The translations under genes were made by a program, and so were the position numbers. A stretch of 64,000 nucleotides of DNA from a virus (taxonomy: Duplodnaviria; Heunggongvirae; Uroviricota; Caudoviricetes): the IMG/VR virus record IMGVR_UViG_2757320620_000001, positions 31,417 to 95,416 of that record; one strand, given 5' to 3'. Below, piece after piece: positions 33,817-55,161 of this stretch (position 1 is the first letter of the stretch; each line of letters starts with the position of its first letter). The notes under the pieces were generated by a model. That model was not told where the DNA came from, did no database searches, and saw only the letters and a program-made list of their open reading frames with translations.

Positions 33817-33858
33817 CTTCCTGATATAGCCACGCGCATCCCGTGTGCGCGTGTGCTA

Positions 33859-33880: not shown

Positions 33881-33909
33881 CAAACGATCGACACGAAAGG
33901 AAGACAGAA

Positions 33910-39768: not shown

Positions 39769-39878
39769 GAACACCGCGGCACACGAAAGAGTGCCGGCTG
39801 ATCCTGTGGGGCTCGATCTTCGTGGCCTTTGTCATCTATTCCGGCATCATGTTCGGTCTGTCGGTGATGGCGCCATGA
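39753..39878 (+). CDS. unlisted small membrane protein (41 aa)
   Basis: MVTRLRTPRHTKECRLILWGSIFVAFVIYSGIMFGLSVMAP. Its stop overlaps the next ATG at 39875 (ATGA). Confidence 0.3.
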   Translation: MVTRLRTPRHTKECRLILWGSIFVAFVIYSGIMFGLSVMAP

Positions 39879-40470: not shown

Positions 40471-41026
40471 GCCTCTCGAGGCGGGCGTCGATATCGAGAC
40501 AACTGGCCTCGAGCGTGGCGATCACCGCATCATCGAGGTCTATATCGGCCTCTATCGCGGCGACAAGCTGCTGAAGGAGTTCAATCAGCGGATCGATCCG
40601 CAGCGCTCGATCGCCAAGGAGGCGCAGGACGTCCACAAGATCAGTTCCGCCGATCTCGTTGGCATGCCGGTCTGGTCGGCGGTCGCTCCCACTGTCCACG
40701 CCTTTCTGAACAAGGCCGACAGCTGGGTGGCGCACAACGGCAATGACTTCGACTTCCCCTTCATCGCTTACGAGCTGAAGCGAGCCGGCCTGGTCATGCC
40801 GGAGAAGCCGACCGTGGACACGATGCATTTCAGCTGGGCGACGCCGGACGGCAAGAAGCCGAACCTGCGCGAGCTGTGCCTGGCCTGCGACGTGCCCTAT
40901 GACCCGAGCCTGGCGCACGCCGCGGACTACGACGTTCACAGAATGATGGAAAGCCTCTTTGCTGCGCGCCGGTTCGGCTATGTCGAGTGGCCGCAAGTCG
41001 CCGTCCAAATCCCTGCGGCTGCCTGA
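40457..41026 (+). CDS. DnaQ-like (DEDDh) 3'-5' exonuclease, Pol III epsilon-like proofreader
   Basis: Exo I DIETTGL, Exo II HNGNDFDFPFI, Exo III HAADYDVHRM. Confidence 0.75.
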   Translation: MQHLEPLEAGVDIETTGLERGDHRIIEVYIGLYRGDKLLKEFNQRIDPQRSIAKEAQDVHKISSADLVGMPVWSAVAPTVHAFLNKADSWVAHNGNDFDFPFIAYELKRAGLVMPEKPTVDTMHFSWATPDGKKPNLRELCLACDVPYDPSLAHAADYDVHRMMESLFAARRFGYVEWPQVAVQIPAAA

Positions 41027-41115
41027 ATTATCCTACCGAGTTCCAATAAATGACGCGCTATAAAGACAATGCAAGCGAAAACAACGACTTGAACGAACTC
41101 GAAAAGGAGACAGAA

Positions 41116-41910
41116 ATGGCGAAATTGCTCGCATCGACCTCTACCACCGCTCTCGCCGGCTCGACCGTAGCCGATCTCGAAAACCTCCTCGATGATCTGG
41201 AGCTCGATGGCCTTGCCGGCGACGAGATTTCCGACGAAATCGAAGAGGTCGTCGAAACCTCGGCAGCCGACGGCGACAGCGCGACCGTGACGGAAGAGGA
41301 TCTCGAAAACGTCAGCGTCGACGACCTCGAAATGTCCCTCGACCGTGAAGACGGCTACGCCGAACAGACGAGCGACACCGACGTCGCCGAAAAGCCGGCC
41401 GAAGCAGCCGCTGCCGCACGCAGCCAGCCGGCGACGACGCCCCGCGCGCCGCGTGCAGCTTCCACCCCGCGCACGCCGCGCGACATGGCCTCACTCGACG
41501 CGAAGGTCTTCGTGCTCGAAGGCGACGCGGCAAGCATGAGCGACGACGATCTCGCCGTGAACAAGACGGCCGTCATGGGCACGGTGCCGAGCCAGAAGAA
41601 GATCGCCGAGAAGTTCGAAAATCTCTTCGCCGCTCTCAACGCCGGCAAGCAGCCGTCGGTCTACGTCGTTCAGGCGTTCAAGCTCTTGGACGAGAAGAAG
41701 ACGCTCAGCGGCACGGACATCACGACGATGTTCAAGGCGAGCTACAAGCAGGGCACGGCGCAATCGCAGTCGGGCCAGGTCATGACGCTCTTCGAAGCGA
41801 CGAAGATCGCCACGCGCACCAAGAACACCTTGGTGCTTAATGAGAACTCGACCGTCGCCCAGCGGCTGCGCGAGATCCTCAAGGCGGCCAGCGCGCCGGC
41901 GACGGCCTGA
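41116..41910 (+). CDS. acidic low-complexity hypothetical protein
   Basis: Strong GAAAAGGAGACAGAA RBS before ATG 41116. D/E-rich N-terminal half and a PR/T-rich middle. Confidence 0.45.
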   Translation: MAKLLASTSTTALAGSTVADLENLLDDLELDGLAGDEISDEIEEVVETSAADGDSATVTEEDLENVSVDDLEMSLDREDGYAEQTSDTDVAEKPAEAAAAARSQPATTPRAPRAASTPRTPRDMASLDAKVFVLEGDAASMSDDDLAVNKTAVMGTVPSQKKIAEKFENLFAALNAGKQPSVYVVQAFKLLDEKKTLSGTDITTMFKASYKQGTAQSQSGQVMTLFEATKIATRTKNTLVLNENSTVAQRLREILKAASAPATA

Positions 41911-41918
41911 TTGCTCGC

Positions 41919-41952
41919 TGACCGACGGGAATAATTCTGTTCTCGTCGGTCA
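41919..41952 (+). terminator. hairpin (TGACCGACG/CGTCGGTCA, 9 bp) after the acidic protein gene, overlapping a motif copy
   Basis: Stem 41919-41927 / 41944-41952, followed by the A/T-rich ATCATTATT. No classic U-run. Confidence 0.35.
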
Positions 41953-41968
41953 ATCATTATTGACTTAC
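41948..41968. promoter_or_regulatory. motif copy (GGTCAATCATTATTGACTTAC)
   Basis: Upstream of the lipoprotein gene at 42022. Confidence 0.45.
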
Positions 41969-42021
41969 TCCGCGGCGCATCCCATAAGCGCCTTCGAAGT
42001 CTCAGCAGAAGGAAATCCAAC

Positions 42022-42303
42022 ATGAAGAACCTCGTCATCCTGACGGGCGTGGCTTTGCTCGCCGCTTCCTGCTCGAGCGTCTCGGAGCATGCCGCCTCGC
42101 CGGCATACAAGACGCTGAAGCGCAACGAATACCAGATCGCCGGCCATCCCTATAAGTCGGCCAATGACTGCGAGCGCACCGCACCCGTCGGCAAGTTCGA
42201 CCGGCGCTGCGATATCCCGGTTGTCGGCTTCCGCAATTTCAACGACCCGGCGATCGGCGTGCAGGCCGGCACACCGGGCGGCTTCGGCCTCGGCGGAATG
42301 TGA
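42022..42303 (+). CDS. lipoprotein (LAASC lipobox)
   Basis: MKNLVILTGVALLAASCSS, a signal peptidase II type signal. Confidence 0.5.
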   Translation: MKNLVILTGVALLAASCSSVSEHAASPAYKTLKRNEYQIAGHPYKSANDCERTAPVGKFDRRCDIPVVGFRNFNDPAIGVQAGTPGGFGLGGM

Positions 42304-42315
42304 GGAGGCACGATC

Positions 42316-42666
42316 ATGTGGATCCACCTCACCGACGCCGAGACCTCCCTGCTTCAGGAAGCGCTCCGCGGGAACTGCACGGATATTCCCGGTCACGAGA
42401 ATGACCACGATCGTCTGTTCGACAAGGTCGAGGCTGCTGCGGCCCGGCAGCGCGAGCCGGAAGCTATTCTTGTAAGCGGCACCATCGTCTACGGCGACGA
42501 TTGCTCCGGAGTTCAGAGCGTCGCCTTTGAGCGTTACGACGCCCTGACCGACGGCAATATCAACTATGACGCCAACACGATCATGTGCCGCGTAGACGAC
42601 GGCGCATACGTCATGGGTTGGATCTACGTCTCGAACATGGAGATCGAAGATGTGGATCAATCTTGA
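42316..42666 (+). CDS. hypothetical protein, paralog family MWI[HN]L (116 aa)
   Basis: Shares its N-terminus and a GWIYVSN/AWIWVRN box with the next ORF. Confidence 0.45.
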   Translation: MWIHLTDAETSLLQEALRGNCTDIPGHENDHDRLFDKVEAAAARQREPEAILVSGTIVYGDDCSGVQSVAFERYDALTDGNINYDANTIMCRVDDGAYVMGWIYVSNMEIEDVDQS

Positions 42667-43126
42667 CGACAAGCAGATGACCGGCGTGGAGTCGGCCCTT
42701 GCTTCGAGCATCAGCCGTTACCGCGAGGCGCTCGACACGCTGATGAACGGCAACCAGGCGCTGAATGCCAGCGCGATCAGCGATATCACCAAGGCCAAGG
42801 ATGAGCTGCAGGCGATCCTCGATCGCTTCGGCAAGGCCCGCGCTGAATTCGATCCGGCCGATCCCTACCGCGCCTACCTGCAGACCCAGGCCGACGATGA
42901 AATGGAAGTCGACGATGACGCCGTCGTTTCGCCTGGCAGTGATCCTGGCGCCTTTGTCCAGGCTTGGATCTGGGTGCGCAACGACGAGGCCGGCGTTCAG
43001 GACGAGGACGATGAAGATGCCTGTCGCGACTGCGGCGCGCACTACGAGGACGGTGGCGACGGTTACAACGGGCGCTGCCCGGACTGCGCCGACAAAGCAG
43101 AAGAGGAAGGACGCGCCGATGACTGA
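42650..43126 (+). CDS. hypothetical protein, paralog of 42316..42666, with a C-terminal CxxC...CxxC zinc ribbon
   Basis: CRDCGAHYEDGGDGYNGRCPDC. Confidence 0.45.
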   Translation: MWINLDDKQMTGVESALASSISRYREALDTLMNGNQALNASAISDITKAKDELQAILDRFGKARAEFDPADPYRAYLQTQADDEMEVDDDAVVSPGSDPGAFVQAWIWVRNDEAGVQDEDDEDACRDCGAHYEDGGDGYNGRCPDCADKAEEEGRADD

Positions 43127-43400
43127 GGCTGTCTTTCGCTACCGCTATTTACCGAGCGGCAACGCAGATGCCTTCCCGGAGATCGATGCTTTCCTGAAGG
43201 AGCGTCAAGTTAAGGCGCAGATTTCAGAGATCAACGGCGGGCGCATGTATCGCGTGCCTGTCGAGGATCTTTCCAAGATGCCCAGCGACGAGCACGGCCC
43301 CTACTTCGGGACCGAGGAGTCTGGCTGGAGCTTCCATCAGGACGATTGGGATTTCATGCGCGTCGCTTGGGGCGGCTCCGAATGGAAGGAGCTCGCATGA
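43119..43400 (+). CDS. hypothetical protein (93 aa)
   Basis: ATG 43119 overlapping the upstream stop. Confidence 0.35.
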   Translation: MTEAVFRYRYLPSGNADAFPEIDAFLKERQVKAQISEINGGRMYRVPVEDLSKMPSDEHGPYFGTEESGWSFHQDDWDFMRVAWGGSEWKELA

Positions 43401-43531
43401 CGGCAGTCGGCCAATACGACCCAAAGCTCGGGCGCGACCGCACCCATAGCGACGATTTTTACGATCACCGCAAACTGGTCCAGGAGCGCATCACTGACGC
43501 CCTGCGCCGTGAAAAGGAAGGAAAGAAGTGA
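43397..43531 (+). CDS. hypothetical protein (44 aa)
   Basis: ATGA-coupled. Confidence 0.25.
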   Translation: MTAVGQYDPKLGRDRTHSDDFYDHRKLVQERITDALRREKEGKK

Positions 43532-44985
43532 GCAATATCTCTGGGAAGACCCTCGTCGCGTGGGGCCTCGAGCCTGGCGCCTGGTTCAAGGACGCTCTGC
43601 CAGTCGCCAATGCGATGCGCGCCGAGGGCAAGACCGATCGCCAGATCATCGACCACCTCTTCACGCTGCGCGTCATGCCCAACGTGACTGAAGGCGTGCC
43701 GCTGCGCACGAACTCCATCCCGTTCGGTCGCTTCATCGAGCCGGAGAGCGAGGACGAGATCCTAAACACTGCGTCGGTCATTGCGCACATGGATGCGCTG
43801 CTGCGCACCCCGACGATCGTCAAGGGCGCGGTTATGCCTGACGCCTGCCCTTCCGGCAGCCAGATGGGCACGATTCCCGTCGGTGGCGTCGTGGCGACCA
43901 AAGACGCGATCCATCCGGGCTTCCACTCGGCCGATATCTGCTGCTCCGTCGCCATGAGCGTCTTCAAGCGCAACAACGACACCGGCAACGTCATGACCGC
44001 GGCGATGAAAGCGACCCACTTTGGTCCCGGCGCCCGGCCGGACAGCAAGGATATCCCGTCGGCCTTCACGCCGATCCTCGGCCAGATCATCGCCAAGTTC
44101 GACAGCAACCCGTTCCTGCGCGGCCTCGAGGATATCGCGGTCGAGCACTTCATGACCCAGGGTGACGGCAATCACTTCCTGTTCGTCGGCGAGCTGGAGA
44201 GCACGAAGCAGATGGCGATCGTCACGCATCACGGCTCGCGCGGCCTCGGCGCCCAGCTCTACAAGCGCGGCAAGCGGGTCGCAGAGAAGCACACGCGCAT
44301 CGTCGCGCCGCGCGTCCCGCTGCACAACGCCTGGATCGACGCCAACAGCGAAGACGGCCAGGCCTACTGGGACGCCTTGCAGATCATCCGGCTGTGGACG
44401 AAATACAATCACTTCGGCATCCACCAGCTGATCTCGCACTATCTCGGCAACGCGATTGTCGACCAGGTCTGGAACGAGCACAATTTCGTCTTCCGGCGCG
44501 CCGACGGGCTCTACTACCACGGCAAGGGCGCGACGCCCTCCTATGACGGCTTTGCCGCTGATGACCAGGGTCTGACGCTGATCCCGCTCAACATGGCGCA
44601 GCCGATCCTCGTCACCAAGCACGCCAACAACGAGGACGCGCTCGGCTTTGCCCCGCACGGCGCCGGCCGCAATCTGTCACGCACGGCGCACCTGAAGCGC
44701 CTGGCAGCTGCATACGGCTCTGACGACCGCGGCTTGAGCCCGCGCGACGTGTCGACCCAGATGGTCAAGGAGACGGCCGGCCTCGACGTGCGCTTCTACA
44801 CCGGCTTTGCCGACCCGTCGGAGTTCCCGTCTGCCTATAAGAGCGCCGACCAGGTGCAGGCGCAGATCAAGCAGCACGGCCTGGCCGAGGTTGTCGATCG
44901 CGTTCTGCCCAAGGGCTCGATCATGGCCGGCGAGATGAAGTGGCAGCGCGCCAAGAAAAAGAAGCCCGAGGTCGTCGCCTCGTAA
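43528..44985 (+). CDS. rtcB: RtcB-family RNA 3'-phosphate ligase
   Basis: Conserved RtcB metal- and GMP-binding residues in context: VMPDACPSG, DICCSV, HHGSRGLG, GDGNHFLF, APHGAGRN. Length 485 aa. Confidence 0.75.
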   Translation: MSNISGKTLVAWGLEPGAWFKDALPVANAMRAEGKTDRQIIDHLFTLRVMPNVTEGVPLRTNSIPFGRFIEPESEDEILNTASVIAHMDALLRTPTIVKGAVMPDACPSGSQMGTIPVGGVVATKDAIHPGFHSADICCSVAMSVFKRNNDTGNVMTAAMKATHFGPGARPDSKDIPSAFTPILGQIIAKFDSNPFLRGLEDIAVEHFMTQGDGNHFLFVGELESTKQMAIVTHHGSRGLGAQLYKRGKRVAEKHTRIVAPRVPLHNAWIDANSEDGQAYWDALQIIRLWTKYNHFGIHQLISHYLGNAIVDQVWNEHNFVFRRADGLYYHGKGATPSYDGFAADDQGLTLIPLNMAQPILVTKHANNEDALGFAPHGAGRNLSRTAHLKRLAAAYGSDDRGLSPRDVSTQMVKETAGLDVRFYTGFADPSEFPSAYKSADQVQAQIKQHGLAEVVDRVLPKGSIMAGEMKWQRAKKKKPEVVAS

Positions 44986-45015
44986 GGCGAGATATAACGT
45001 TTAAGCAACAGACCA

Positions 45016-45048
45016 AGGCGGCGCATCCCAGGCGCCGCCTTTCTCATG
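45016..45048 (+). terminator. rho-independent terminator after rtcB (AGGCGGCGC-loop-GCGCCGCCT + TTTCTCATGTT)
   Basis: 9 bp GC stem (45016-45024 / 45032-45040) followed by a T-rich tail. Confidence 0.55.
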
Positions 45049-45157
45049 TTCAGATAGCATTCATGCAATATGTTGCATATACCGCCGACGTGCTCCAGTA
45101 GAGCGCCTAGTAATAATGCGCGATAATTCTTCTGTTATTCAACGGAGAGCTTTGCGC

Positions 45158-45451
45158 ATGGCATTTATATACGATGAAAGCGTTCGCGGCAGCGCCAGCA
45201 ATATTTCCATCGACAAAATGGACGGCACAAAAGCGTATCTGCGCCACTATGAAAATAAGCTGACGCTGACGTTCTTTGCCGAGCGCGGATCGCGGCTCGA
45301 GCGTTGGCAGGCGGAAAAAGAGCTGGTGATATGTGAGCGCAAACTGAAGTTCTGGGAAAAACATCCTAACTTCGTGGGTGCTTTGGCGCGCGCAGGCATG
45401 GAGAAGCTCAACCATGACTGGAAAGGAAGGGGCGCTATGCCGCGCCCCTAG
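45158..45451 (+). CDS. hypothetical protein (97 aa), lower-GC codon usage
   Basis: ATG 45158 with an AACGGAGAG RBS. Lies in an AT-richer island. Confidence 0.4.
   Translation: MAFIYDESVRGSASNISIDKMDGTKAYLRHYENKLTLTFFAERGSRLERWQAEKELVICERKLKFWEKHPNFVGALARAGMEKLNHDWKGRGAMPRP
45429..45448. terminator. bidirectional hairpin between convergent genes (GGGGCGC-TATGCC-GCGCCCC)
   Basis: 7 bp GC stem between the 3' ends of 45158..45451 (+) and 45464..45694 (-). Confidence 0.35.
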
Positions 45452-45463
45452 CCTGCAGGGGTT

Positions 45464-45694
45464 TTAGGCGGCGATTGTGAGGTTGTCGGCGAGGCCTGAT
45501 TGCTGATAAGCGGGGGAAAGGTTCGCGCCGAAAATGACCAGCTCTCTCGTTGCATCCTCAAGGCCGAAGGACGATTGCGCCTCGTAGCCGGGTAAATCGA
45601 ATTCTATGCCGCGCTCTTCGAAGAACCGAGCCGCGTGCTCGAGGAGGGAGGCTTTTAGGTCATGCGCGATTTCGTCAAAGGCTCGCCGGGTCAT
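45464..45694 (-). CDS. hypothetical protein (76 aa), one of the few minus-strand genes
   Basis: Not shadowed by a + strand gene. Flanked by an AT-rich non-coding stretch (45695-45959). Confidence 0.4.
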   Translation of the reverse strand: MTRRAFDEIAHDLKASLLEHAARFFEERGIEFDLPGYEAQSSFGLEDATRELVIFGANLSPAYQQSGLADNLTIAA

Positions 45695-45959
45695 TCCTGT
45701 ATTTCCTTTTCATCATGTAACGCTCTTAGGACTTCATTCCTAAGCTACCATGGGGTGATCACGCAACCCAACATTTTCTCTTGTGTGGAGAGAGGCACAG
45801 AACTTGTGCAACCGTCAGATAGCCCAGGGCGAATCGGCACACAAGCAGAACCGCTAAAATTCTCATGCATCCCGATGTCTAACTAACTATTCTAACTTAG
45901 TCACTAAACAACTTTTAGGTAACACCATCCCTAAAAGTAATGAGTAGGAAAGGAATAAA

Positions 45960-46286
45960 ATGATCACCAACGCCCTGGAGAAAATGACGGCTGAAATCGG
46001 GCGGGAGCCCGCTGCACGGGCATTTCACCTCAACAATGGCGACTGTGGGTTGGTCATCCGTAAGGATGGAACGACCGAAATGTTCCAGCAAGGTTTTTGC
46101 ATAGCTGGTTTGCAGCAAACGCATAGCACAATGTCGGCAGAAGACAAACAGGCGCTGCTCAATGGACAGACGCTGATGGTGCTTAGCATTGTTGCTGCGT
46201 CGCCGGAACTGCAAAGTTCGATTCTCGCCGTCGCAATCAACCAGGGGGCGGTCGATATTCCCACCGCAAACGCCAATGCCGCATAG
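45960..46286 (+). CDS. hypothetical protein (108 aa)
   Basis: GGAAAGGAATAAA RBS. Confidence 0.45.
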   Translation: MITNALEKMTAEIGREPAARAFHLNNGDCGLVIRKDGTTEMFQQGFCIAGLQQTHSTMSAEDKQALLNGQTLMVLSIVAASPELQSSILAVAINQGAVDIPTANANAA

Positions 46287-46689
46287 GAAGCGCCTGCGGG
46301 ACCACCTCAACACGATACCGATCGAAGACCGCACCGGCGAGGCGATCATCGAGGCTATTCGGACCTGTCTCACCAAGTTCCCGGACCTGATCGAGGAGAT
46401 CCTGCCGGGCAAGCGCCTGGTCCGCGTCCGCATGACGCCGGCCGAGCGCACCAAGGTCGCCGCAAAGGCAGCAGCGGTCGCGTCCAAGATCGAGGCCGAT
46501 AAGCGGCACGCCCTGGTCCTGCCGATCATCGACAAGATCCTGAAGGACGATCCGGATGCCTCGCTTGCGGATATCAAGAAGGTGCTGGACAATAGTGACA
46601 TCACGCCTGTCCGGTCGGCCAAATGGAGCCGGGCGACGATCAACTACATCATGACGAAAGCCAACCTTCGTGCAAAAGATCAATCGTAA
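46277..46689 (+). CDS. hypothetical protein (about 137 aa)
   Basis: ATG 46277 overlaps the upstream stop by 10 nt. The ORF-track frame 46189..46689 is trimmed. Confidence 0.35.
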
Positions 46690-46918
46690 GCGCCTCGAGT
46701 TCGCCTGTAATGCGTTCCTCACCTCGATGACGCGGCAGTTCTTCGCGCTCAATCCTGACGCTACCGAGTGTCCGGTGAAGCCGCTGACCGAATACCCCGA
46801 GGATCAACGCAGCGCGCTGATGCGCTCGGTCGGCGCGGCGCTGAAAAGCACCGATACCGACGGCGATGCGGCTTTCGAAGCCTGGGTGGCGCAACAGCAG
46901 TCTGCCCAGGCCGCTTAG
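46670..46918 (+). CDS. hypothetical protein (82 aa)
   Basis: Alternative (GTG) start. Weak call. Confidence 0.3.
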   Translation: MQKINRKRLEFACNAFLTSMTRQFFALNPDATECPVKPLTEYPEDQRSALMRSVGAALKSTDTDGDAAFEAWVAQQQSAQAA

Positions 46919-46930
46919 TTTAGGCTGCAT

Positions 46931-46952
46931 GGTCAGTAAAAATTGATTGACC
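46931..46952. promoter_or_regulatory. motif copy (GGTCAGTAAAAATTGATTGACC), extended palindrome
   Basis: Upstream of ORF 46999. Confidence 0.5.
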
Positions 46953-46998
46953 GCGATCACGCGCCGCGCTATCAGCAGATCAACAACGGAGATTCCAC

Positions 46999-47550
46999 AT
47001 GGCTAACACCAGCCTGCCGGCGAAGCTTACCGACCTCCAGCAACACATGCTCTCGATGGTCGACCACATGCTGAAGCAATACGGCCAACCCGGCTCCACC
47101 TCGATCTTCTCGCCGGCGCGGCGCCACGGCAAGTCCCTGGCAATGAAGGCGATCACGACGAATGCAGTCGCGGGTCTCAACCCGACAATGATAACTGTCG
47201 ATGAGTGGACGAGCGTTTTCAACGAGCCTGTCAGCGCCAGCGAATTGACCTCGGTTTTGATACCTGAGTTCAAGGCCGTCGGCCCCGAGGTTACGCTCGA
47301 CGATCCGAAGTGGCCGGGCAGCCGGATCGAGATCTGGCGCAAGGAGACCGAGAAGCGCGATCCGCGCCACCCTAATCCGAAGGCCGGCCGGATCGTCCGC
47401 TACGAGATCCGCGGCGAGCACGCCGAGGGCGAAAGGGAACTCCATAGTCTCGATGTCGCCCGGCGCCGCGCCCAGATGCTGCACGAGCGCGCCATCAAGC
47501 GTATCCAGCGCCAGATGCAGGCAGCAAACCCGATGTTCGGCCGCTTCTAG
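46999..47550 (+). CDS. hypothetical protein ending in ...NPMFGRF
   Basis: Preceded by the motif at 46931-46952. Carries the C-terminal tail shared with four other ORFs. Confidence 0.5.
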   Translation: MANTSLPAKLTDLQQHMLSMVDHMLKQYGQPGSTSIFSPARRHGKSLAMKAITTNAVAGLNPTMITVDEWTSVFNEPVSASELTSVLIPEFKAVGPEVTLDDPKWPGSRIEIWRKETEKRDPRHPNPKAGRIVRYEIRGEHAEGERELHSLDVARRRAQMLHERAIKRIQRQMQAANPMFGRF

Positions 47551-47587
47551 CCACAACGATCCTACCGCGTTCCTGCGTGCGTTGTGC

Positions 47588-47612
47588 GATAAATAAACAT
47601 TGATTGATTATC
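47588..47612. promoter_or_regulatory. motif copy (GATAAATAAACATTGATTGATTATC)
   Basis: Upstream of the alarmone hydrolase gene. Confidence 0.45.
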
Positions 47613-47623
47613 AGGAGATCAGG

Positions 47624-48181
47624 ATGGTTTACTCGATCTATGGCGCGCAGATGATTGCGCGCGCCCAGGCCTTTGCGACTGCCGCGCATCATGCGATCGA
47701 CCAGCGCCGCAAATTCACCAACGAGCCCTATATCGTCCATCCTGGCGCCGTTGCCGCGATCATTCAGGCGCTGCCGGATCACACCTGGCAGCAGGTCGTT
47801 TGGGCTTGGCTGCACGACACGGTCGAGGACACGGCGATCACGCTCGATGTCGTCGAGAAGGCCTTCAACCACGAGATCCGCTATGGCCTCGAATACCTGA
47901 CCAATGTCGAGCGCGAGGCCGGCAACCGTAAGCATCGGCACCGGTTGAACGTCGACCGGCTGGCGCGCGCGCCTGCCCGCGTCCAGACCGTCAAGATCGC
48001 CGACATCAAGGACAACACCAAGAACATCGCCGCGCTCGGCGGTTCGTTCGGCCCGGTCTTCCTCGAGGAGAAGCTCGACGCGATGATCGCTCTCACCTTC
48101 GGCGACCAGGTGCTTTGGTCGCTGACGATGGATCAAATTCTCAAACAGAAAGAGGAGATCGCCCATGCCAAAGAAGCGTGA
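47624..48181 (+). CDS. small alarmone hydrolase (SpoT/Mesh1-like HD domain, (p)ppGpp hydrolase)
   Basis: H-x3-VA...LHDTVEDT is the (p)ppGpp-hydrolase HD signature. There is no synthetase domain. AGGAGATCAGG RBS. Preceded by the motif at 47588-47612. Confidence 0.6.
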   Translation: MVYSIYGAQMIARAQAFATAAHHAIDQRRKFTNEPYIVHPGAVAAIIQALPDHTWQQVVWAWLHDTVEDTAITLDVVEKAFNHEIRYGLEYLTNVEREAGNRKHRHRLNVDRLARAPARVQTVKIADIKDNTKNIAALGGSFGPVFLEEKLDAMIALTFGDQVLWSLTMDQILKQKEEIAHAKEA

Positions 48182-48377
48182 AGCGCCGACGTTCCGCAGC
48201 TATCTGCAATGCACCGACTGCGGCCACGTCACCACGGTCAACACCGTGCCGTTCTCCATCGTCAAGCCGAGCCGGCGTCTGGAGTGCAGCTGCGAGGACT
48301 ATAGCGTGCGCTCGATCTCGGAAGAGGAAGGCTTTGACGCGATTGTGCGCCAGCAGGTCGAGGGCGTTGCGGCATGA
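48165..48377 (+). CDS. small zinc-ribbon protein (CTDCG ... CSCED)
   Basis: 70 aa with two Cys pairs. Confidence 0.4.
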   Translation: MPKKREAPTFRSYLQCTDCGHVTTVNTVPFSIVKPSRRLECSCEDYSVRSISEEEGFDAIVRQQVEGVAA

Positions 48378-48739
48378 GTGTCTCGATCGTCACCCTCTCC
48401 TGCGGCTGCTTCATCGCCGGCCGGGATTTCCACTCATGCGCCGGCCACGAGAATAGCGAGCCGAACGGCATCGAGACCAAACAGGTCGAGATCCGCCTCG
48501 AAAATACCTGCGGCGCCTGCCCCGAGCAGTATGACGCCTTCTTCGGCGACGAGATGGTCGGCTATCTGCGTCTGCGGCATGGCTATTTTCGCGTCGAATA
48601 TCCGGACATCGGTGGTGACGTAATCCTCGACGGTCATCCCGTGGGCGACGGCTGCTTCGATCCGGACGAGCGCGACGAATGGCTGAACAGGGCGAAGACA
48701 GCGATCGCCGCCCGCCTGGTCAAGGAGGGAAAGGTCTGA
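48374..48739 (+). CDS. hypothetical Cys/His-rich protein (121 aa)
   Basis: ATGA-coupled. Clusters CGC...HSCAGH...CGACPE. Confidence 0.4.
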   Translation: MSVSIVTLSCGCFIAGRDFHSCAGHENSEPNGIETKQVEIRLENTCGACPEQYDAFFGDEMVGYLRLRHGYFRVEYPDIGGDVILDGHPVGDGCFDPDERDEWLNRAKTAIAARLVKEGKV

Positions 48740-48933
48740 TGAAGAAGCAGCACAACCGGCAACGCCCGAACCAGAAGAAACAGCGTCAGAAATCGACACA
48801 GCGAGTCACCAGCGCGATCCGTCGCAATGCGTGGCCGACAGCTTATCAATTCGGGAGCTCGCTTCAAATGGCTTCTCTCGCATTGGCTATGGGCTGGGTC
48901 GGTATCGACAGACTCCAGGAGCGGACGCGATGA
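48739..48933 (+). CDS. hypothetical basic protein (64 aa)
   Basis: TGATG-coupled. Confidence 0.3.
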   Translation: MKKQHNRQRPNQKKQRQKSTQRVTSAIRRNAWPTAYQFGSSLQMASLALAMGWVGIDRLQERTR

Positions 48934-49370
48934 ACTGGACCTCATCCAATGAGCACGAGCGTTTCAAGCACAAGGACTGGCAGTATCTGGTCCAGACCGA
49001 GCAACTGAAGCTCTCCTATCACGACTGGGTCGTCGCTCAGGTCGACGAATGGACGTCCGACGTCCGGGCGCTGAACGACAAGCTCCGGCGCGGGCAGACT
49101 AGCGGGACGATTGCGATCGCCGGCGCTCTGGCAAATGCGGAGCAAGAGGAGATCCTCGCCGCTGCGCGTCAGGTGATGGACTACGCCGCCTTCGACCCGA
49201 AGGACGATCCCCATAACGAGCACGACTTCGGCTCCTTTGAGATCGAGGGCCAGCGCTACATGTGGAAGATCGACTATTACGATCTGGCGATGGAGAACCT
49301 GTCGGAGAATCCGGCCGATCCCAAAGTGACGAACCGCGTGCTGACGATCTTCTACGCCGAGGATTACTGA
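48930..49370 (+). CDS. hypothetical protein (146 aa)
   Basis: ATGA-coupled. Confidence 0.4.
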   Translation: MNWTSSNEHERFKHKDWQYLVQTEQLKLSYHDWVVAQVDEWTSDVRALNDKLRRGQTSGTIAIAGALANAEQEEILAAARQVMDYAAFDPKDDPHNEHDFGSFEIEGQRYMWKIDYYDLAMENLSENPADPKVTNRVLTIFYAEDY

Positions 49371-49699
49371 TGATCCAGGAGGCGGTTCTCGATTCGCTCG
49401 AAGGCGATCGTTACATCGGCTTCCTGGTCGAACAGGAAGAGTGGCGCGATGTCATCAACAGCTATGGATTTGCCGAAACGAAGCTTGTCGGTAAGAATTG
49501 GATCTGGCGCATCACCGATCGCCTGACCGGCAACACCACGGAGGGACCGATTCCTTCAGGCACGGAAGCCGAGGTTCAAGCCTTCTTCGAAGAGACCTGG
49601 GCGCAGTTCAATAATAGCCCCTATCGGCCACCCGTGCCGGAAGTGCCGATCGTCCCCGTGGACCCTTACGCGAGCCACCCCAACTACGGGCGGTTCTAG
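49371..49699 (+). CDS. hypothetical protein ending in ...HPNYGRF
   Basis: TGATG-coupled. Carries the shared C-terminal tail. Confidence 0.45.
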
Positions 49700-49773
49700 C
49701 TACCGAACGCTCCCGAGTGCAGCCCTGACGCTCGCATGCAATAACAGAATGTAAACAGCAGCTTAGAGGTTAC

Positions 49774-50028
49774 ATGAAGCTTTTCAATTGCCTTTCGAAG
49801 AAGACGCAGGCCGCCCTTGAGAGCATAGGTGATTGCTGGCGCCTTGAGTTAGGCCGCAAGCATATTCGGATCTTCGTCCACGACACCCTAGCGGCGTCGG
49901 CACCGAGAAAGCTCCGCGGCGACGGCGACGGTGGTTACCGCGCGGAGCTCAACGTGGTTTCCCAGATTCGCCGCGCCGCTCGAGGAGAGGCAACGTCGCG
50001 GCGCACGGACTTGACGTCTGCCACATAA
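49774..50028 (+). CDS. hypothetical protein (84 aa)
   Basis: AGAGGTTAC RBS. Confidence 0.35.
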   Translation: MKLFNCLSKKTQAALESIGDCWRLELGRKHIRIFVHDTLAASAPRKLRGDGDGGYRAELNVVSQIRRAARGEATSRRTDLTSAT

Positions 50029-50065
50029 ATCCTGCCGCAATCCTTGTCGCATCGTGCGACATTTG

Positions 50066-50086
50066 ATAAGTCAACATTGATTGAGG
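50066..50086. promoter_or_regulatory. motif copy (ATAAGTCAACATTGATTGAGG)
   Basis: Upstream of ORF 50095. Preceded by the palindrome GTCGCATCGTGCGAC. Confidence 0.45.
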
Positions 50087-50094
50087 AAACGCAC

Positions 50095-50304
50095 ATGCCG
50101 AAGAACGCAGCGCAGAAGATCCAGCCGGTGGTCATAGACCTGAACGGCACCAACGAGAAGGGCGAGCCGACCTTCGCCGGCTACACCGTTTTCCAGGCGA
50201 CGCAGATCGCCTGCGAGAGCAGCAGCCCCAACGCCCTCGAGTGGCTCAAGGCCTGGTGGAATGCCGACCTGACCGCGATGAACACGACACCGGAGAGCTA
50301 CTGA
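50095..50304 (+). CDS. hypothetical protein (69 aa)
   Basis: Motif at 50066-50086, then a GAGGAAACGCAC RBS and ATG 50095. Confidence 0.4.
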   Translation: MPKNAAQKIQPVVIDLNGTNEKGEPTFAGYTVFQATQIACESSSPNALEWLKAWWNADLTAMNTTPESY

Positions 50305-50720
50305 TGCAGGTCACGACCCGCTACCTCAACTTCCCCGCCCTCCTCTACCGCGTCGGCCACGCCGACAGCTCGCAAGGGCTCTGGTATGACGGCGACGGCC
50401 AGGAGACCGGCATCATCCACTCGCTGAAGGACGGCGCTGCTGGTGCGCTGCCGATGGGGCCGCACGAGGTCTTTAAGGCTGACGGCCGGGCATGGATCAG
50501 CGCCACCGACAACCTGCCGGATCTCGGTCGCTGGTTCAGCCATGCCGACATGATCGAGCTGCTCGACCGTGGCTATCAGCTCGAGGAGATCGGCGTTCAC
50601 CGCTATCGCTATCTGCAGTTTGCCACCTACGGGCACCAGGTCTTCTGCGTGGAAGATGTGATCTTCCGGCGCGCCATCGACCCGATGCTGCCATATCAGC
50701 CGGTTCGGAGGGCAGCGTGA
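50304..50720 (+). CDS. hypothetical protein (138 aa)
   Basis: TGATG-coupled. Confidence 0.4.
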   Translation: MQVTTRYLNFPALLYRVGHADSSQGLWYDGDGQETGIIHSLKDGAAGALPMGPHEVFKADGRAWISATDNLPDLGRWFSHADMIELLDRGYQLEEIGVHRYRYLQFATYGHQVFCVEDVIFRRAIDPMLPYQPVRRAA

Positions 50721-50887
50721 GCGAAACCTTCATGAAGATCGTGATCGAGACCGCGCGGCCGCCCTCACCCGACGACCTCAAGCGCATCGAGTGGCAAGTC
50801 GCCGACGCCCTGAAGGCGCTCGAATACACCGGCGAGCCAGAGGGTAATCAAATCACCGGTGCTTTCGTCGTAAAGGAGAAGTCTTGA
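50717..50887 (+). CDS. hypothetical protein (about 56 aa)
   Basis: GTGA-coupled start. Alternative ATG at 50741. Confidence 0.25.
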   Translation: MSETFMKIVIETARPPSPDDLKRIEWQVADALKALEYTGEPEGNQITGAFVVKEKS

Positions 50888-51405
50888 TGGGCGCGCTCGG
50901 CAATCTAACCCGCAAGGTCAAGCGACGCGCTGATCCAGCCAAGTTTGCTCGGCAGGTGCTGCGCAAGGATAGAATCATCATGGATCACCTGGCACGCAGC
51001 GAGCGCCGGCCGGCGACCGGCTTCTATGCCGGCCTGACCGACGAGCAGAAGCGCCTGGTCATGGTGGCGAAGGATGGCTCCGTTCAACTCGACGTGGAAA
51101 TGAGCCGCGCCGAGCTCGAGGAGCGCTCGACCGTCGGCGAGATCCAGCCATCGCACCCGCAGCGATACGAGAGCCACGGCCACGAGACCAAGGGTCGCAT
51201 CTTCAATGGCGAGTGCAATCGATCGGCGTGCGACAACTGGCGCGCCACCTACTACAACGTCATGACCTATTCGTATTATTGCCGGCCGTGCGGCTGGGCG
51301 ATCAACGAAGCGCCGCAAGGCCGCGGCAAGCCGATCTGTATCGAGGTGACGGAGAATCTGACGCACGAGCGCATGGATTATCTCTATCAGGAGCAGTATC
51401 GATGA
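50887..51405 (+). CDS. hypothetical Cys-rich protein (172 aa)
   Basis: Coupled start. NGECNRSACDNW...YYCRPCGW. Confidence 0.4.
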   Translation: MGALGNLTRKVKRRADPAKFARQVLRKDRIIMDHLARSERRPATGFYAGLTDEQKRLVMVAKDGSVQLDVEMSRAELEERSTVGEIQPSHPQRYESHGHETKGRIFNGECNRSACDNWRATYYNVMTYSYYCRPCGWAINEAPQGRGKPICIEVTENLTHERMDYLYQEQYR

Positions 51406-51788
51406 GGGTCGTCCAGCGCATGCTCAACGACCTGCACAGCGACCTCGGGTGCGGCGGCTCCCGTGGCGACTTCACAAACGACATATGGACCGTGACCTGG
51501 CGCTTTGGCGTCAAGCGCATCGAAGATAAGGCGCGCGACAACGTCTTCTCGATCCACAATGTCACCTTGGCCGAGAGGCACCGCGGCCGCGGGTATTTCA
51601 CCGACCTGCTGCGGCGTCTGGATGAGCACCCGGAACTGGGCGGCCAGCGCTTCGATTGGATCTACCTCGAGCAGGTGAACTACCGGCTCGCCGGCCACCT
51701 CGAGCGCGAGCTCCACTACAAATCCGAGTTTGGCATGGTGATCGACTGCTGGCGCCGGGTAACCGGGCAATTGGAGATGAAGCTGTGA
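51402..51788 (+). CDS. putative GNAT-family acetyltransferase
   Basis: IHNVTLAERHRGRGYFTDLLRRL resembles the acetyl-CoA binding motif A (R/Q-x-x-G-x-G/A). ATGA-coupled. Confidence 0.35.
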   Translation: MRVVQRMLNDLHSDLGCGGSRGDFTNDIWTVTWRFGVKRIEDKARDNVFSIHNVTLAERHRGRGYFTDLLRRLDEHPELGGQRFDWIYLEQVNYRLAGHLERELHYKSEFGMVIDCWRRVTGQLEMKL

Positions 51789-52351
51789 TCGAGCCTGATT
51801 ACAATGAGAGCATCTGGACGCTGGATTCCCACACCGGCGACTATGCGCTCCTGACCCTCAATAAGGACGCTGGGCACGCCTGTGTCATCCGCTGCGTTGA
51901 CGGTGACTGGGAGACCAACGATAGCGGCACGCTCGAGGCGATGCGCCGGAAGTTCATGCGCGTGACCGGCAAGACCTTCCCACAAGGTCTCGGCCGCGAC
52001 TCTTTTGACGCAGCCTATCCGCCTGGCGAATGGGTTCAGGTGGACGCGCTCTTTCTCGATGGCTTCGACTATTATCTTTGGCAAGGCGGCCCCAACCCCA
52101 AAAGACCCCTTGGGGTCTGCGTGCGAGTTACCCAGCATAGCTTCCGCTGGGAGGTTCTTGATCAAGGTGAGTATCCAACGGTTCACCACACGATGACGGG
52201 TTTCAAAGCAACGGTAGGCGCGCAGCCGATTGAATGGACTCATGCCGGGCATCCGCCGCAGCACCGCTGCACTTGTAGCGCCTGCGCCGACGGCAGGGCG
52301 GAAGAGGCAACGCGAACCTATGCCGGCAACCCAAATTTCGGGCGGTTCTGA
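51785..52351 (+). CDS. hypothetical protein ending in ...NPNFGRF, paralog of the next gene
   Basis: Shares GLGRDSFDAAYPPGEWVQVDALF with GIGYDSFDKAFPHAEWEQLDAFT of 52351..52671. GTGA-coupled start. Confidence 0.45.
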   Translation: MIEPDYNESIWTLDSHTGDYALLTLNKDAGHACVIRCVDGDWETNDSGTLEAMRRKFMRVTGKTFPQGLGRDSFDAAYPPGEWVQVDALFLDGFDYYLWQGGPNPKRPLGVCVRVTQHSFRWEVLDQGEYPTVHHTMTGFKATVGAQPIEWTHAGHPPQHRCTCSACADGRAEEATRTYAGNPNFGRF

Positions 52352-52671
52352 TGCTCCAGAAAGGTATCGGCTACGACTCCTTCGACAAGGCCTTCCCGCA
52401 TGCCGAATGGGAGCAGCTCGACGCCTTCACGACCAAGAACGACATCGGCTACACGCTATGGAGAATGCGCGGCGTCCGCGGACCAAATCCACCCGCCTTT
52501 AGCTCGAGCTCGCACCTCGACATCGATGGCGATCTCGCCTGGCAGCAGGTCCACAAAGGGAATCTTTGGCGGGTGCAGGAGAGCTGGGATCGAGCCAAGG
52601 CGAACCTCGCATATGTGCCACCGCCGAAGGTCGACGAGTATGCCGCGCACCCCAACTTCGGGCGGTTCTGA
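52351..52671 (+). CDS. hypothetical protein ending in ...HPNFGRF, paralog of the previous gene
   Basis: TGATG-coupled. Carries the shared C-terminal tail. Confidence 0.45.
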   Translation: MLQKGIGYDSFDKAFPHAEWEQLDAFTTKNDIGYTLWRMRGVRGPNPPAFSSSSHLDIDGDLAWQQVHKGNLWRVQESWDRAKANLAYVPPPKVDEYAAHPNFGRF

Positions 52672-52767
52672 CAATCTATTTGGCATGTGAAAACAGCCAC
52701 TTACTACCAGATACTATGCCTAGATTTGTCGTTCTATGATTGATCATAGTCAACGCGAGGAAACATA

Positions 52768-53058
52768 ATGAAAACGCTCGACCAGCTTCTCAAGCACTGC
52801 GCGGACACCGGCATGATGATGGTCTGCTACTACGACGATCCGAGCGAGCCGGACTACAGAGGCACCGACCAGGCGCAAGCCAAGGAAGCGCTCGAGGCGT
52901 GCGACGAAATGCGCCTCATCATACTCGACGCCGACGGCAAACGCTGGGGCTGGGCGCACATCGTCAACGATCACGACCAGGATCCAGAAGAGCAGATTGC
53001 CGACCACACGACCGGCGACCAGCTCGACGCCTGGATGCAAGAGGGAGAACAGGCATGA
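52768..53058 (+). CDS. hypothetical acidic protein (96 aa)
   Basis: GGAAACATA RBS. Confidence 0.4.
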   Translation: MKTLDQLLKHCADTGMMMVCYYDDPSEPDYRGTDQAQAKEALEACDEMRLIILDADGKRWGWAHIVNDHDQDPEEQIADHTTGDQLDAWMQEGEQA

Positions 53059-53531
53059 GAACCGACGAACAGATCGTCATGGAAACGAACGACCTTGCCC
53101 GGCTGATGCTGGGCGAGCTGGTGGGCACGGGTTACGTGGCGCCGGACGGGCACAAGTTCTGGGAGGCGGCCGATCCGCGCTCGCAGAAGGCCTGGGCGGC
53201 TGCCGTCAAGGCGATGGAGCTGATCACCAAGACCGAGGTCGAGGATGCGCTCAACAACTATCTCGCTGACCTCGAGGCGAAGCCAAAGGTCTATCGATCA
53301 CCCACCGGCAATGTCATCGTCGGCACCGCGGAGACCGTGCTGGCGCTGGCGCAAATCATCGGCATCAACCAGGACGGCACGCCTGAATATGAAGGTGGAA
53401 CCACAATCCATTGGGATACTCAGCGGACGCTCACACGCGATGGTAAGATTCTCTTCACCGACGAGGCCGGCGAGGACTGGACTTTCGACCAGCTCACTGA
53501 AAACGAGGAGGATACCGATGGAGACCAGTGA
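53055..53531 (+). CDS. hypothetical protein (158 aa)
   Basis: ATGA-coupled. Confidence 0.4.
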   Translation: MRTDEQIVMETNDLARLMLGELVGTGYVAPDGHKFWEAADPRSQKAWAAAVKAMELITKTEVEDALNNYLADLEAKPKVYRSPTGNVIVGTAETVLALAQIIGINQDGTPEYEGGTTIHWDTQRTLTRDGKILFTDEAGEDWTFDQLTENEEDTDGDQ

Positions 53532-53946
53532 TATCTGGAAGAAGGTCAAGATCGATCCGGAGCTGGCGAAGCACGTCGTCCTCTCGCCCGCTGATGTTCT
53601 GCACCTTGCCGAGCTGGCCGCTTGTGCTGAAAATCCGGCCGAGTGGCTGTCTACCGAGCTGACCAACCGCGGTCAACAGCGCAAGAACCAGGTCGAGGCG
53701 CGGAAGATCCAGCGCATGAAGGAGGACGCAGCCCGGCTGCGCAACTTCGGCGCTTGGCCCGCTATTCCGGTGCTGGCGCTCAAAACGCAGCCCTGGGTCA
53801 CTGAGGCGGCCGGCACGATGCGCTTTGCGACCATCACGCGGATGACCATCGAGCGCGGCGCGCCTATTCTTGTCGTGGTCGATGATGGGCCAAACGAGAC
53901 CTTCGACAGCGTTGAGGATCTCGTCAAGGTGTGGAGCGTCGACTGA
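53518..53946 (+). CDS. hypothetical protein (142 aa)
   Basis: Overlaps the upstream gene by 14 nt in another frame. Confidence 0.35.
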   Translation: METSDIWKKVKIDPELAKHVVLSPADVLHLAELAACAENPAEWLSTELTNRGQQRKNQVEARKIQRMKEDAARLRNFGAWPAIPVLALKTQPWVTEAAGTMRFATITRMTIERGAPILVVVDDGPNETFDSVEDLVKVWSVD

Positions 53947-54338
53947 TGCAGCTCGCCTTCACCATCGCTGCTGCCGAAGAGACCGAGGAAGAGCCCGAGC
54001 GGATCGACCTCTCCTCACCTGAAGACGTGCTGATCGAGGTGATCATGCACGACCCGGCCGGCTCCAAGACCGACTGGGAAAATTTCGGCATCGAATCCAC
54101 GACCGTCATCAACGGTAAGGAAGGCATCACCGGCGCCGCTGAATACGAGCGCTGCTATGGCACCTCCCTCGACTACACGATCAAGGATCTCATCGATCCG
54201 CCAGGCGAAGGCTGGTTCGTGGTTCAGGGCGTGACCGCAAAATTCCACCGCGGCGACGGCTGGACGACCGATGACGACATGAGCTTCTGGCACGAGGCCG
54301 TGCGGCCGGCCACACCCGAGGAGATCGCAGAGGCATGA
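53946..54338 (+). CDS. hypothetical protein (130 aa)
   Basis: TGATG-coupled. Confidence 0.35.
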   Translation: MQLAFTIAAAEETEEEPERIDLSSPEDVLIEVIMHDPAGSKTDWENFGIESTTVINGKEGITGAAEYERCYGTSLDYTIKDLIDPPGEGWFVVQGVTAKFHRGDGWTTDDDMSFWHEAVRPATPEEIAEA

Positions 54339-54565
54339 CCAATCCCAAATATTTCGTCCTCAACGAGCACACGCTCGGCTACACGATCGAGGAGACGCCT
54401 GGCTGGTTTGGTATCCTGCACGCCAGCATCCTCAAGGGCAGCACCTACGATCGTCTGAGCGGACCAGTGGTGATCTCGCCGAGCGACACGCTCCGGCCGG
54501 CCACCAAGGCTGACTTCGACGAATACCGCGTCTCCTGGAAAGGACACCTCGATGAAAATAGTTGA
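54335..54565 (+). CDS. hypothetical protein (76 aa)
   Basis: ATGA-coupled. Confidence 0.35.
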   Translation: MTNPKYFVLNEHTLGYTIEETPGWFGILHASILKGSTYDRLSGPVVISPSDTLRPATKADFDEYRVSWKGHLDENS

Positions 54566-54725
54566 TCGCAAATGCCCGGAGTGCGGCGTTCCCTTCGACG
54601 AGCTGCCCTGGCAGGAATGCGAGACCCATCGCAGACACCAGGCGGACGAGCCGGAGCTCACCGAGGACGAACACGAGGTTTATAGAGAAGACGTTCTCGC
54701 CGAAGTCACCCAGGAGCAGTCATGA
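54552..54725 (+). CDS. unlisted small zinc-ribbon protein (57 aa; MKIVDRKCPECGVPFDELPWQECETHRRHQ...)
   Basis: ATG 54552. Its stop overlaps the ATG at 54722 (ATGA). Cys pair CPEC plus C/H cluster. Below the ORF-track cutoff. Confidence 0.35.
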   Translation: MKIVDRKCPECGVPFDELPWQECETHRRHQADEPELTEDEHEVYREDVLAEVTQEQS

Positions 54726-54919
54726 CCAAGCAAGTAAAGAACGAAATTGCGGTGCTCCGGCTCGCCCAGGCGCTCAAGGATTTCGACGACTGCAATCCTG
54801 ACGTCGGTATGGGGCCGTCCAACGACTATTTCATTGAGCAGGCTGCCCGACAGCTCAGCCTCGAAACCGCGGACTATGACGCCAAGCACGTCGAGGATCT
54901 GATGAGGGCGGCGCGGTAA
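54722..54919 (+). CDS. hypothetical protein (65 aa)
   Basis: ATGA-coupled. Confidence 0.35.
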   Translation: MTKQVKNEIAVLRLAQALKDFDDCNPDVGMGPSNDYFIEQAARQLSLETADYDAKHVEDLMRAAR

Positions 54920-55161
54920 TGGGCGTCTGGCGCTATTGCGAGTGTGGTCAAGGCACCTCCTTCCCTGACGCAGACGAGCACATACAGGGCTACCAGCGCT
55001 GCGCGGCATGTAACGCCGAGGTGCCGGTTAACGAAGACGAGCGCCGGCGTTTCTTCCTCGAAATGCACGAGCGCCTGCAGAAGGTCGAGCACCAGGTCGC
55101 CATGCTGATCAAAGCGACCAAGCTGCTCGCGCAGCCGCACAGGAGGGCAAACCAATCATGA
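54919..55161 (+). CDS. small zinc-ribbon protein (CECG ... CAAC)
   Basis: TAATG-coupled. Confidence 0.35.
   Translation: MGVWRYCECGQGTSFPDADEHIQGYQRCAACNAEVPVNEDERRRFFLEMHERLQKVEHQVAMLIKATKLLAQPHRRANQS

Follow-up and report, generated by a model that had tools for sequence, protein, structure and literature searches.

gp139 of Rhizobium phage RHEph10, a predicted stand-alone small alarmone hydrolase of an alphaproteobacterial phage

Why would a tailed phage of rhizobia encode an enzyme of the kind that degrades the alarmone (p)ppGpp, and on which substrate would it act? The question is raised by an open reading frame (ORF) located at 47624-48181 of the window, the stretch of 64,000 nucleotides analyzed here (positions 31,417 to 95,416 of the IMG/VR record IMGVR_UViG_2757320620_000001, Caudoviricetes). 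Window positions 40000-55000 were 100% identical over the full length (megablast) to Rhizobium phage RHEph10 (JX483881 / NC_034248, 115,042 bp, host R. etli CFN42); a window coordinate equals the RHEph10 record coordinate minus 31416. The ORF (+ strand) is 100% identical to gp139 of this phage (YP_009352362.1), deposited as "putative metal-dependent phosphohydrolase protein"; orthologues of gp139 already carry annotations of the (p)ppGpp hydrolase type. Domain content, conserved residues and fold support the assignment of gp139 to the RelA/SpoT-homologue (RSH) superfamily as a new alphaproteobacterial phage small alarmone hydrolase (SAH). Judging from its sequence, gp139 is very probably an active 3'-pyrophosphohydrolase of the SAH type; the fuller statement, that it is an active stand-alone SAH protecting the phage from alarmone- or RSH-toxin-driven shutdown, appears likely.

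The gene and its ribosome-binding site (RBS) are placed as follows.

47624..48181, + strand: SAH gene gp139, 185 aa plus stop codon, with a single RelA/SpoT-type HD hydrolase domain
47613..47617, + strand: Shine-Dalgarno sequence AGGAG, six nt before the ATG, read from the sequence and kept upstream of the orthologue in phage RHph_N1_10

gp139 is a real gene, not an ORF arising by chance from high G+C content. Read from ATG 47624 through the TGA that ends at 48181, the frame translates into the 185-aa product described in the initial annotation, and the good RBS described there is the AGGAG listed above. The program-made ORF list opens the frame upstream, at TTG 47600 (193 aa). This start was ruled out by the position of the RBS and by the N-termini of the orthologues: ATG 47624 is the start because AGGAG lies six nt before it and because the orthologues (183-186 aa) begin there with M[IV]YSIYG. 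The G+C content at codon positions 1/2/3 was 0.65/0.37/0.82, as in a coding sequence, and dN/dS was 0.23 between gp139 and its 79% identical orthologue in RHph_N1_10. A search of a large protein database yielded 1827 homologues at E<=1e-5. The antisense ORF 47495-48166 (- strand, 223 aa), longer than gp139, was rejected as a shadow ORF of GC-rich sequence; its G+C content at the codon positions is atypical (0.78/0.41/0.60).

The profile search proposed in the initial annotation returned HD_4 (PF13328) as the sole Pfam family of gp139 (residues 15-127, E=2.6e-8), at 34.2 bits, above the gathering cut-off of 27.2; the same family was present in all of the best 120 of the 1827 homologues. The NCBIfam model TIGR00691 (spoT_relA) was matched in positions 1-125 of 687 alone (E=2e-15), and gp139 is thus without the synthetase part. 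Neither Pfam nor NCBIfam detected a synthetase, TGS or ACT domain in the protein, in agreement with the absence of a synthetase domain claimed initially. PHROG 990 ("metal-dependent phosphohydrolase") was matched with E=2e-38. Both hydrolase signatures named in the initial annotation were found in the translation: HxxxVA reads H39-P-G-A-V43-A44, and LHDTVEDT reads L63-H-D-T-V-E-D-T70. The catalytic features are located as follows.

47738..47740, + strand: codon of H39, the first metal-binding histidine, within EPYIVHP; placed by the RelSeq/MESH1 alignment and invariant in the family
47810..47833, + strand: L63-H64-D65-T66-V67-E68-D69-T70 (HDxxED), containing the pairs HD (metal-binding) and ED (catalytic); placed by sequence and alignment
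48002..48016, + strand: codons of D127 to N131 (A-D-I-K-D-N), D127 being the last metal-binding aspartate and N131 a conserved asparagine; placed by alignment

The three motifs compare with those of known hydrolases as follows.

First motif: RHEph10 EPYIVHP; RelSeq EPYIVHP; MESH1 PYINHP
Second motif: RHEph10 LHDTVEDT; RelSeq (1vj7) LHDVVEDT; human MESH1 (3nr1) LHDTVEDT
Third motif: RHEph10 VKIAD..DN; RelSeq VKLADRLHN; MESH1 VKLADKLYN

Across 37-39 aligned homologues, with identity down to 32-38%, residues H22, Q27, R29, Y36, H39, H64, D65, E68, D69, D127, and N131 were invariant, and so were V67, A126, and T70. The metal-ligand set H...HD...D is complete in gp139 (H39, H64, D65, D127), and the catalytic ED pair (E68, D69) and the positioning residues R29, Y36, and N131 are intact. 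The metal ligands of MESH1 we take to be H35, H61, D62, and D122; by the established description of the RelSeq and MESH1 active sites, the invariant columns of gp139 comprise the residues that bind the metal, the catalytic ED pair and those that position the nucleotide.

The fold points in the same direction. The AlphaFold2 model of gp139, built from a homologue alignment leaving out the SSU5 sequence, had a pLDDT of 97.3 and a pTM of 0.92 and consisted of one all-helical domain, eleven helices forming a compact unit that spans residues 5-184. All 37 Foldseek matches in the PDB at E<=0.001 were MESH1, SAHs, related hydrolases or hydrolase domains of Rel/SpoT proteins; the classes included MESH1, P. 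aeruginosa SAH, L. levettii SAH, C. glutamicum RelH, a B. caccae (p)ppApp hydrolase, Listeria lmo0812, and Rel/SpoT hydrolase domains. MESH1 or bacterial SAHs made up the top 17 matches, and Rel/SpoT hydrolase domains came next. The model matched MESH1, P. aeruginosa SAH (PaSAH), and RelH over nearly the whole protein, with TM-scores of 0.75-0.82 and a probability of 1.00. In the sequence search of the PDB (phmmer), the order was different: M. tuberculosis Rel and RelSeq matched best, through their hydrolase domains, followed by human and fly MESH1, and bacterial SAHs were weaker than either.

By analogy with the characterised homologues, a divalent metal (Mn2+ in those enzymes) would be held by H39, H64, D65, and D127; the E68-D69 pair would serve water activation, and R29/K30, Y36, and N131 would position the nucleotide. 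The enzyme would remove the 3'-pyrophosphate from (p)ppGpp and, judging by tested relatives, probably also act on (p)ppApp and on 3'-pyrophosphorylated CCA ends of tRNA. Expression is predicted to proceed from the strong RBS of its own behind a copy of a palindromic motif, with apparent translational coupling to two small downstream ORFs. gp139 would then keep alarmone-type 3'-pyrophosphates low in the infected Rhizobium, and at low alarmone levels transcription, translation and nucleotide supply may be spared during phage replication. Two routes to growth arrest could be countered in this way: the stringent response brought about by the host's single Rsh and RSH-type toxins (toxSAS or Tas1-like). 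We infer both the substrate range, with (p)ppGpp, (p)ppApp, pyrophosphorylated tRNA, and NADPH as its candidates, and the benefit to the phage.

Published work on related enzymes is consistent with this proposal. The phage SAHs of SSU5 (PaSpo) and PVP-SE1 (PbcSpo) neutralised five of five toxSAS toxins, namely FaRel, FaRel2, PhRel, PhRel2, and CapRel (Jimmy et al. 2020, PMC7229694), and it was proposed that incoming phages encode SAHs to bypass alarmone-based abortive infection (PMC7229694). PaSpo(SSU5) is reported to take off the tRNA modification installed by FaRel2, leaky expression being enough (PMC11559606), and MESH1 and ATfaRel restore the aminoacylation of 3'-pyrophosphorylated tRNA (bioRxiv 10.1101/2021.04.30.441581). 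R. etli has a single bifunctional Rsh, and (p)ppGpp is needed there for stress tolerance and effective symbiosis (PMC3188799). The stringent-response and toxSAS roles named in the initial annotation correspond to the published roles of the phage SAH class.

Several points weigh against the proposal. The palindromic motif upstream of gp139, described below, precedes genes of all classes throughout the genome and is therefore uninformative on the timing of gp139 expression. Substrate preference is not readable from sequence; the authors of a study of another phage SAH likewise stated that its substrate was not deducible from sequence (PMC12846349). An activity as NADPH phosphatase is also reported for MESH1, the best structural match. 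The last point bears on a different reading of the same fold, according to which gp139 would be an HD phosphohydrolase of nucleotide or cofactor metabolism, with NADPH, 3'-phosphoadenosine 5'-phosphosulfate (PAPS) or some other 3'- or 2'-phosphorylated nucleotide as its substrate. The best structural matches were human MESH1 with PAPS and with NADPH (9chy, 5vxa), the genome of RHEph10 contains many nucleotide-metabolism genes, and an orphan bacterial SAH has been called metabolically promiscuous (PMC9765508). At the same time, the residues of (p)ppGpp hydrolysis are all kept in gp139, its highest sequence similarity is to the bacterial Rel hydrolase domains and PaSpo, and promiscuity would come on top of alarmone hydrolysis and not replace it. 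We regard this reading as improbable and retain alarmone-type 3'-pyrophosphate hydrolysis as the predicted activity.

The initial annotation had described a stand-alone hydrolase, and the gene content around gp139 agrees with this. No trace of a synthetase was found in the protein, in ten neighbouring ORFs or among the 172 annotated features of RHEph10. Pfam gave no match for the ten ORFs around gp139, and PHROG gave one match alone, to a family of unknown function. PADLOC gave nothing for gp139 and three adjoining ORFs, a neutral result since it lists defence and not anti-defence proteins. Synthetase genes were also absent next to three bacterial homologues of gp139 located on long contigs. 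Because no synthetase lies beside gp139, in the phage annotation or by the homologues, gp139 is a stand-alone hydrolase and not one half of a toxin-antitoxin pair. We also considered whether gp139 might be the type IV antitoxin to a toxin of its own, as ATfaRel is, and failed to find the synthetase partner.

These data bear on a narrower function, dedicated counter-defence, in which the main substrates would be (pp)pApp or 3'-pyrophosphorylated tRNA generated by toxSAS/CapRel-type systems of the host. gp139 would act in trans as a neutraliser resembling a type IV antitoxin, instead of modulating the ordinary stringent response. This function is possible, and we propose it tentatively. It would fit the neutralisation of FaRel, FaRel2, PhRel, PhRel2, and CapRel by the SSU5 and PVP-SE1 enzymes (PMC7229694) and the sufficiency of leaky PaSpo, with which gp139 shares 38% identity, against FaRel2 (PMC11559606). 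An RtcB-type RNA ligase gene of the RNA-repair type lies 2.6 kb upstream of gp139 (window 43528-44985, + strand), in the same + strand block of small genes. However, a synthetase adjoins neither gp139 nor the three sampled bacterial homologues, and neutralisation upon over-expression in E. coli leaves the natural target undefined. Protection from both alarmone- and toxin-driven shutdown remains the preferred interpretation.

Two small ORFs follow gp139 directly.

48165..48377, + strand: 70-aa ORF with a CxxC...CxC pattern, overlapping the 3' end of the SAH gene by 17 nt
48374..48739, + strand: 121-aa ORF with an ATGA overlap with the 70-aa ORF

The 70-aa ORF had 58% identity to EVB77_143 of phage RHph_N1_10 and no Pfam, PHROG or PADLOC match; it is probably co-transcribed with gp139. 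The 121-aa ORF had 73% identity to EVB77_144 of the same phage and matched PHROG 21607 (unknown function) with E=2.9e-26. The order of the three genes is kept in RHph_N1_10, and the overlaps suggest a small co-translated unit of gp139, the 70-aa ORF and the 121-aa ORF. A downstream partner conserved more widely was rejected: the overlapping genes of ~180 aa in SSU5 and B1VFA are related neither to each other nor to the ORFs of RHEph10. The RefSeq annotation downstream of gp139 (record 79594-79872 and 79970-80155) is seemingly mis-framed at these two ORFs; the RefSeq frame gives a translation rich in R, S, P, and A, and RefSeq gp137 corresponds to the C-terminal part of the 121-aa ORF alone.

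Further genes of possible relevance are encoded elsewhere in the window. A tRNA-Cys(GCA) gene was found at 29292-29366 (+ strand), with a motif copy directly after it, and RtcB, tRNA-Cys and gp139 could constitute a tRNA-repair or anti-tRNA-damage set. Genes similar to rIIA and rIIB ("protector from prophage-induced early lysis") are located at 33910-37745 (record 65326-69161); rIIA is preceded by a motif copy, and a counter-exclusion function is possible in the same phage.

The palindromic motif lies immediately upstream of the Shine-Dalgarno sequence of gp139.

47589..47611, + strand: copy of the phage motif, ATAAATAAACATTGATTGATTAT, an imperfect palindrome with a position weight matrix (PWM) score of 33.8, ending 12 nt before the ATG

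Over ~20 bp the motif forms an imperfect palindrome, its consensus being about GTCAGTAAATATTGATTGAC. The window contained 11 sites of the pattern A[AC]ATTGATTGA, allowing one mismatch at most, where 1.2 were expected; 10 of them lay on the + strand. The motif copy ahead of gp139, as claimed in the initial annotation, is real. A PWM scan revealed ~40 sites in the 115-kb genome of RHEph10, mostly 10-50 nt before start codons. The sites precede DnaB-like replication genes, CobT/CobS, rIIA, tail and portal genes, and gp139, covering replication, metabolic, accessory, early, and structural classes. Other copies in the window are located at 4540, 7138, 29366, 32474, 33859, 36203, 38576, 46932, and 50066, among others; the better-scoring strand mostly matches the direction of the gene, and some copies in the late region are followed by terminators consisting of a GC-rich hairpin and a T-run. 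The RHph_N1_10 orthologue has the motif upstream as well, whereas the B1VFA and SSU5 homologues lack it there.

The motif is probably a regulatory site. It could be the operator of a global repressor, similar to the scattered C1 operators of P1, a promoter read by the phage sigma factor or an RNA hairpin. A sigma-70 promoter was rejected: the promoter scan found no sigma-70 consensus promoter in 44000-52000, and the motif is instead a genome-wide imperfect palindrome. A phage sigma factor of the sigma-70 family (region 2), gp045, is encoded at window 8410-9045 (+ strand; record 39826-40461), immediately downstream of CobT/CobS-like genes, which have motif copies in front of them; gp045 is a candidate reader of phage-specific promoters.

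The distribution of the gene was also analyzed. It was present in 10 of 10 related Rhizobium phage records. RHEph10 encodes RepC (record 33311-34315, window 1895-2899) and, beyond the window, ParA (record 102538-103179) and ParB (record 106243-106989), and is homologous to the plasmid-prophage pLM21S1 (PMC4447125, PMC7969092); it is a phage-plasmid-type element. Assemblies of Rhizobium, Ensifer, Pararhizobium, Agrobacterium, and Sinorhizobium contain orthologues of the hydrolase with 48-80% identity, carried by contigs of 115-122 kb, and near-full-length relatives of RHEph10 occur as replicons of 115-122 kb in these five genera and in Shinella. In PLSDB, 198 plasmid records carried the hydrolase family; 184 of these were non-mobilizable and most were enterobacterial. 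Among those listed, the enterobacterial carriers were ~100-110 kb in size, as in SSU5-type phage-plasmids, and four rhizobial carriers were 115-119 kb. The hydrolase is conserved in two lineages of the phage-plasmid type, RHEph10-like rhizobial and SSU5-like enterobacterial. Bacterial homologues with 42-46% identity were located at positions 5001-5507 of a Devosia enhydra contig and at 5001-5516 of marine metagenome contigs. Their neighbours were a resolvase, an ISL3 transposase, an Mrr-type nuclease, and a gene for a Schlafen/AlbA-type ATPase, with no alarmone synthetase among them; these surroundings look like those of a mobile element or a defence island.

Conservation in two phage-plasmid lineages makes a role in the carried state conceivable besides one in lytic growth. 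The hydrolase would then be expressed while the element persists as a lysogen or plasmid and would either shield the host from (p)ppApp-synthetase toxins of competitors or retune its (p)ppGpp physiology, affecting stress tolerance and symbiosis. The replication and partition genes, the homology to pLM21S1 and the predominantly non-mobilizable plasmid carriers are compatible with such a role; moreover, chromosomal P. aeruginosa SAH and Aph1 are tied to (p)ppApp degradation and interbacterial antagonism in the literature. However, RHEph10 was isolated as an infecting phage (PMC4447125), and if the upstream motif were the operator of a prophage repressor, gp139 would be silent in that state. We consider a primarily carried-state function unlikely. 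It differs from counter-defence and from hydrolysis of another nucleotide mainly by substrate and life-cycle stage, and the three are mutually overlapping and not exclusive. A combination of several of these elements is doubtful but conceivable: in a tRNA-rescue toolkit, gp139 would strip the 3'-pyrophosphate added by toxSAS/CapRel from tRNA CCA ends, RtcB would reseal tRNAs cut by anticodon nucleases, and (p)ppGpp might perhaps be lowered in the plasmid state too. If true, this lowering of (p)ppGpp would alter the stress tolerance of rhizobia and their nitrogen-fixing symbiosis.

gp139 adds a well-supported alphaproteobacterial case to the phage SAHs, which are thought to evade alarmone arrest and RSH-toxin defences. 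The annotation is sharpened from "metal-dependent phosphohydrolase" to SAH. The enzyme class, its occurrence in phages and the anti-toxSAS effect were already published in 2020-2024, and SAH genes are discussed in the same terms in other phage genome papers (PMC12846349). Conservation over the rhizobial phage-plasmid lineage and its SSU5-like relatives suggests a lasting selective benefit for such elements. As R. etli possesses a single Rsh and needs (p)ppGpp for stress survival and symbiosis, an element degrading (p)ppGpp could have ecological consequences.

Among the known systems, gp139 was compared with single-domain hydrolases and with the hydrolase parts of larger proteins. Aph1, a (p)ppApp-specific hydrolase (7smg), gave a phmmer E of 0.29 and a TMq of 0.59-0.64 over ~150 columns, below MESH1 and the SAHs; with a marginal sequence match and a partial fold match, an Aph1-type (p)ppApp-specific hydrolase was rejected for gp139. 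Atd1, cited as an alarmone-degrading factor of phages, is described as MazG-like and would accordingly be of an unrelated family; what Aph1 and Atd1 have in common with SAHs is the breakdown of signalling nucleotides. The long RSH proteins (RelSeq, 1vj7; M. tuberculosis Rel, 5xnx; SpoT, 7qpr) have hydrolase domains that gave the best sequence match in the PDB (E ~1e-10) and nearly identical EPYIVHP, LHDxVEDT, and VKxADxxxN motifs; unlike gp139, they carry added synthetase, TGS, and ACT domains regulating the hydrolase.

The P. aeruginosa SAH (6yvc, 6z3n/o) is, like gp139, a stand-alone enzyme with the same fold (TM-score of ~0.8), but it is chromosomal and its identity to gp139 is 21-22% (E 1.5e-4 to 6e-4). 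The literature gives (p)ppGpp as well as (p)ppApp as its substrates. The SAH of PVP-SE1 (PbcSpo subfamily) and ATfaRel of Cellulomonas marina are toxSAS-neutralising hydrolases and, as SAHs, resemble gp139; the PVP-SE1 enzyme is also a stand-alone phage enzyme. Both are probably of a different SAH subfamily from gp139, and ATfaRel adjoins its own toxin as a type IV antitoxin, whereas gp139 is partnerless. MESH1 of human and Drosophila (3nr1, 5vxa, 9chy, 3nqw), with TM-scores of 0.77-0.82 over ~180 residues and 23-28% identity, shares with gp139 the single domain, the size and the aligned HD...ED...D motifs. It differs in being eukaryotic, in lacking a phage context and in its reported second activity as an NADPH phosphatase.

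The closest characterised enzyme was PaSpo(SSU5), encoded by SSU5_099 of a Salmonella phage-plasmid. In a pairwise comparison with gp139 it gave E=3e-27; the PDB sequence search gave 3e-10 for MESH1, 7e-6 for L. levettii SAH, and 1.5e-4 for PaSAH. The identity between PaSpo and gp139 is 38% over residues 11-159; PaSpo is 50% identical to the B1VFA orthologue of gp139. The two proteins share a single HD_4 domain, the aligned catalytic residues and an origin in siphoviruses of the phage-plasmid type, and in neither case does a synthetase gene adjoin. PaSpo differs in having 213 aa, an additional insertion and a tail at the C terminus, in its gammaproteobacterial host and in its downstream neighbour, SSU5_100, which is unrelated to the RHEph10 downstream ORFs. 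PaSpo has been characterised experimentally, whereas gp139 is known from sequence and a structural model. gp139 likely belongs to the PaSpo subfamily of SAHs.

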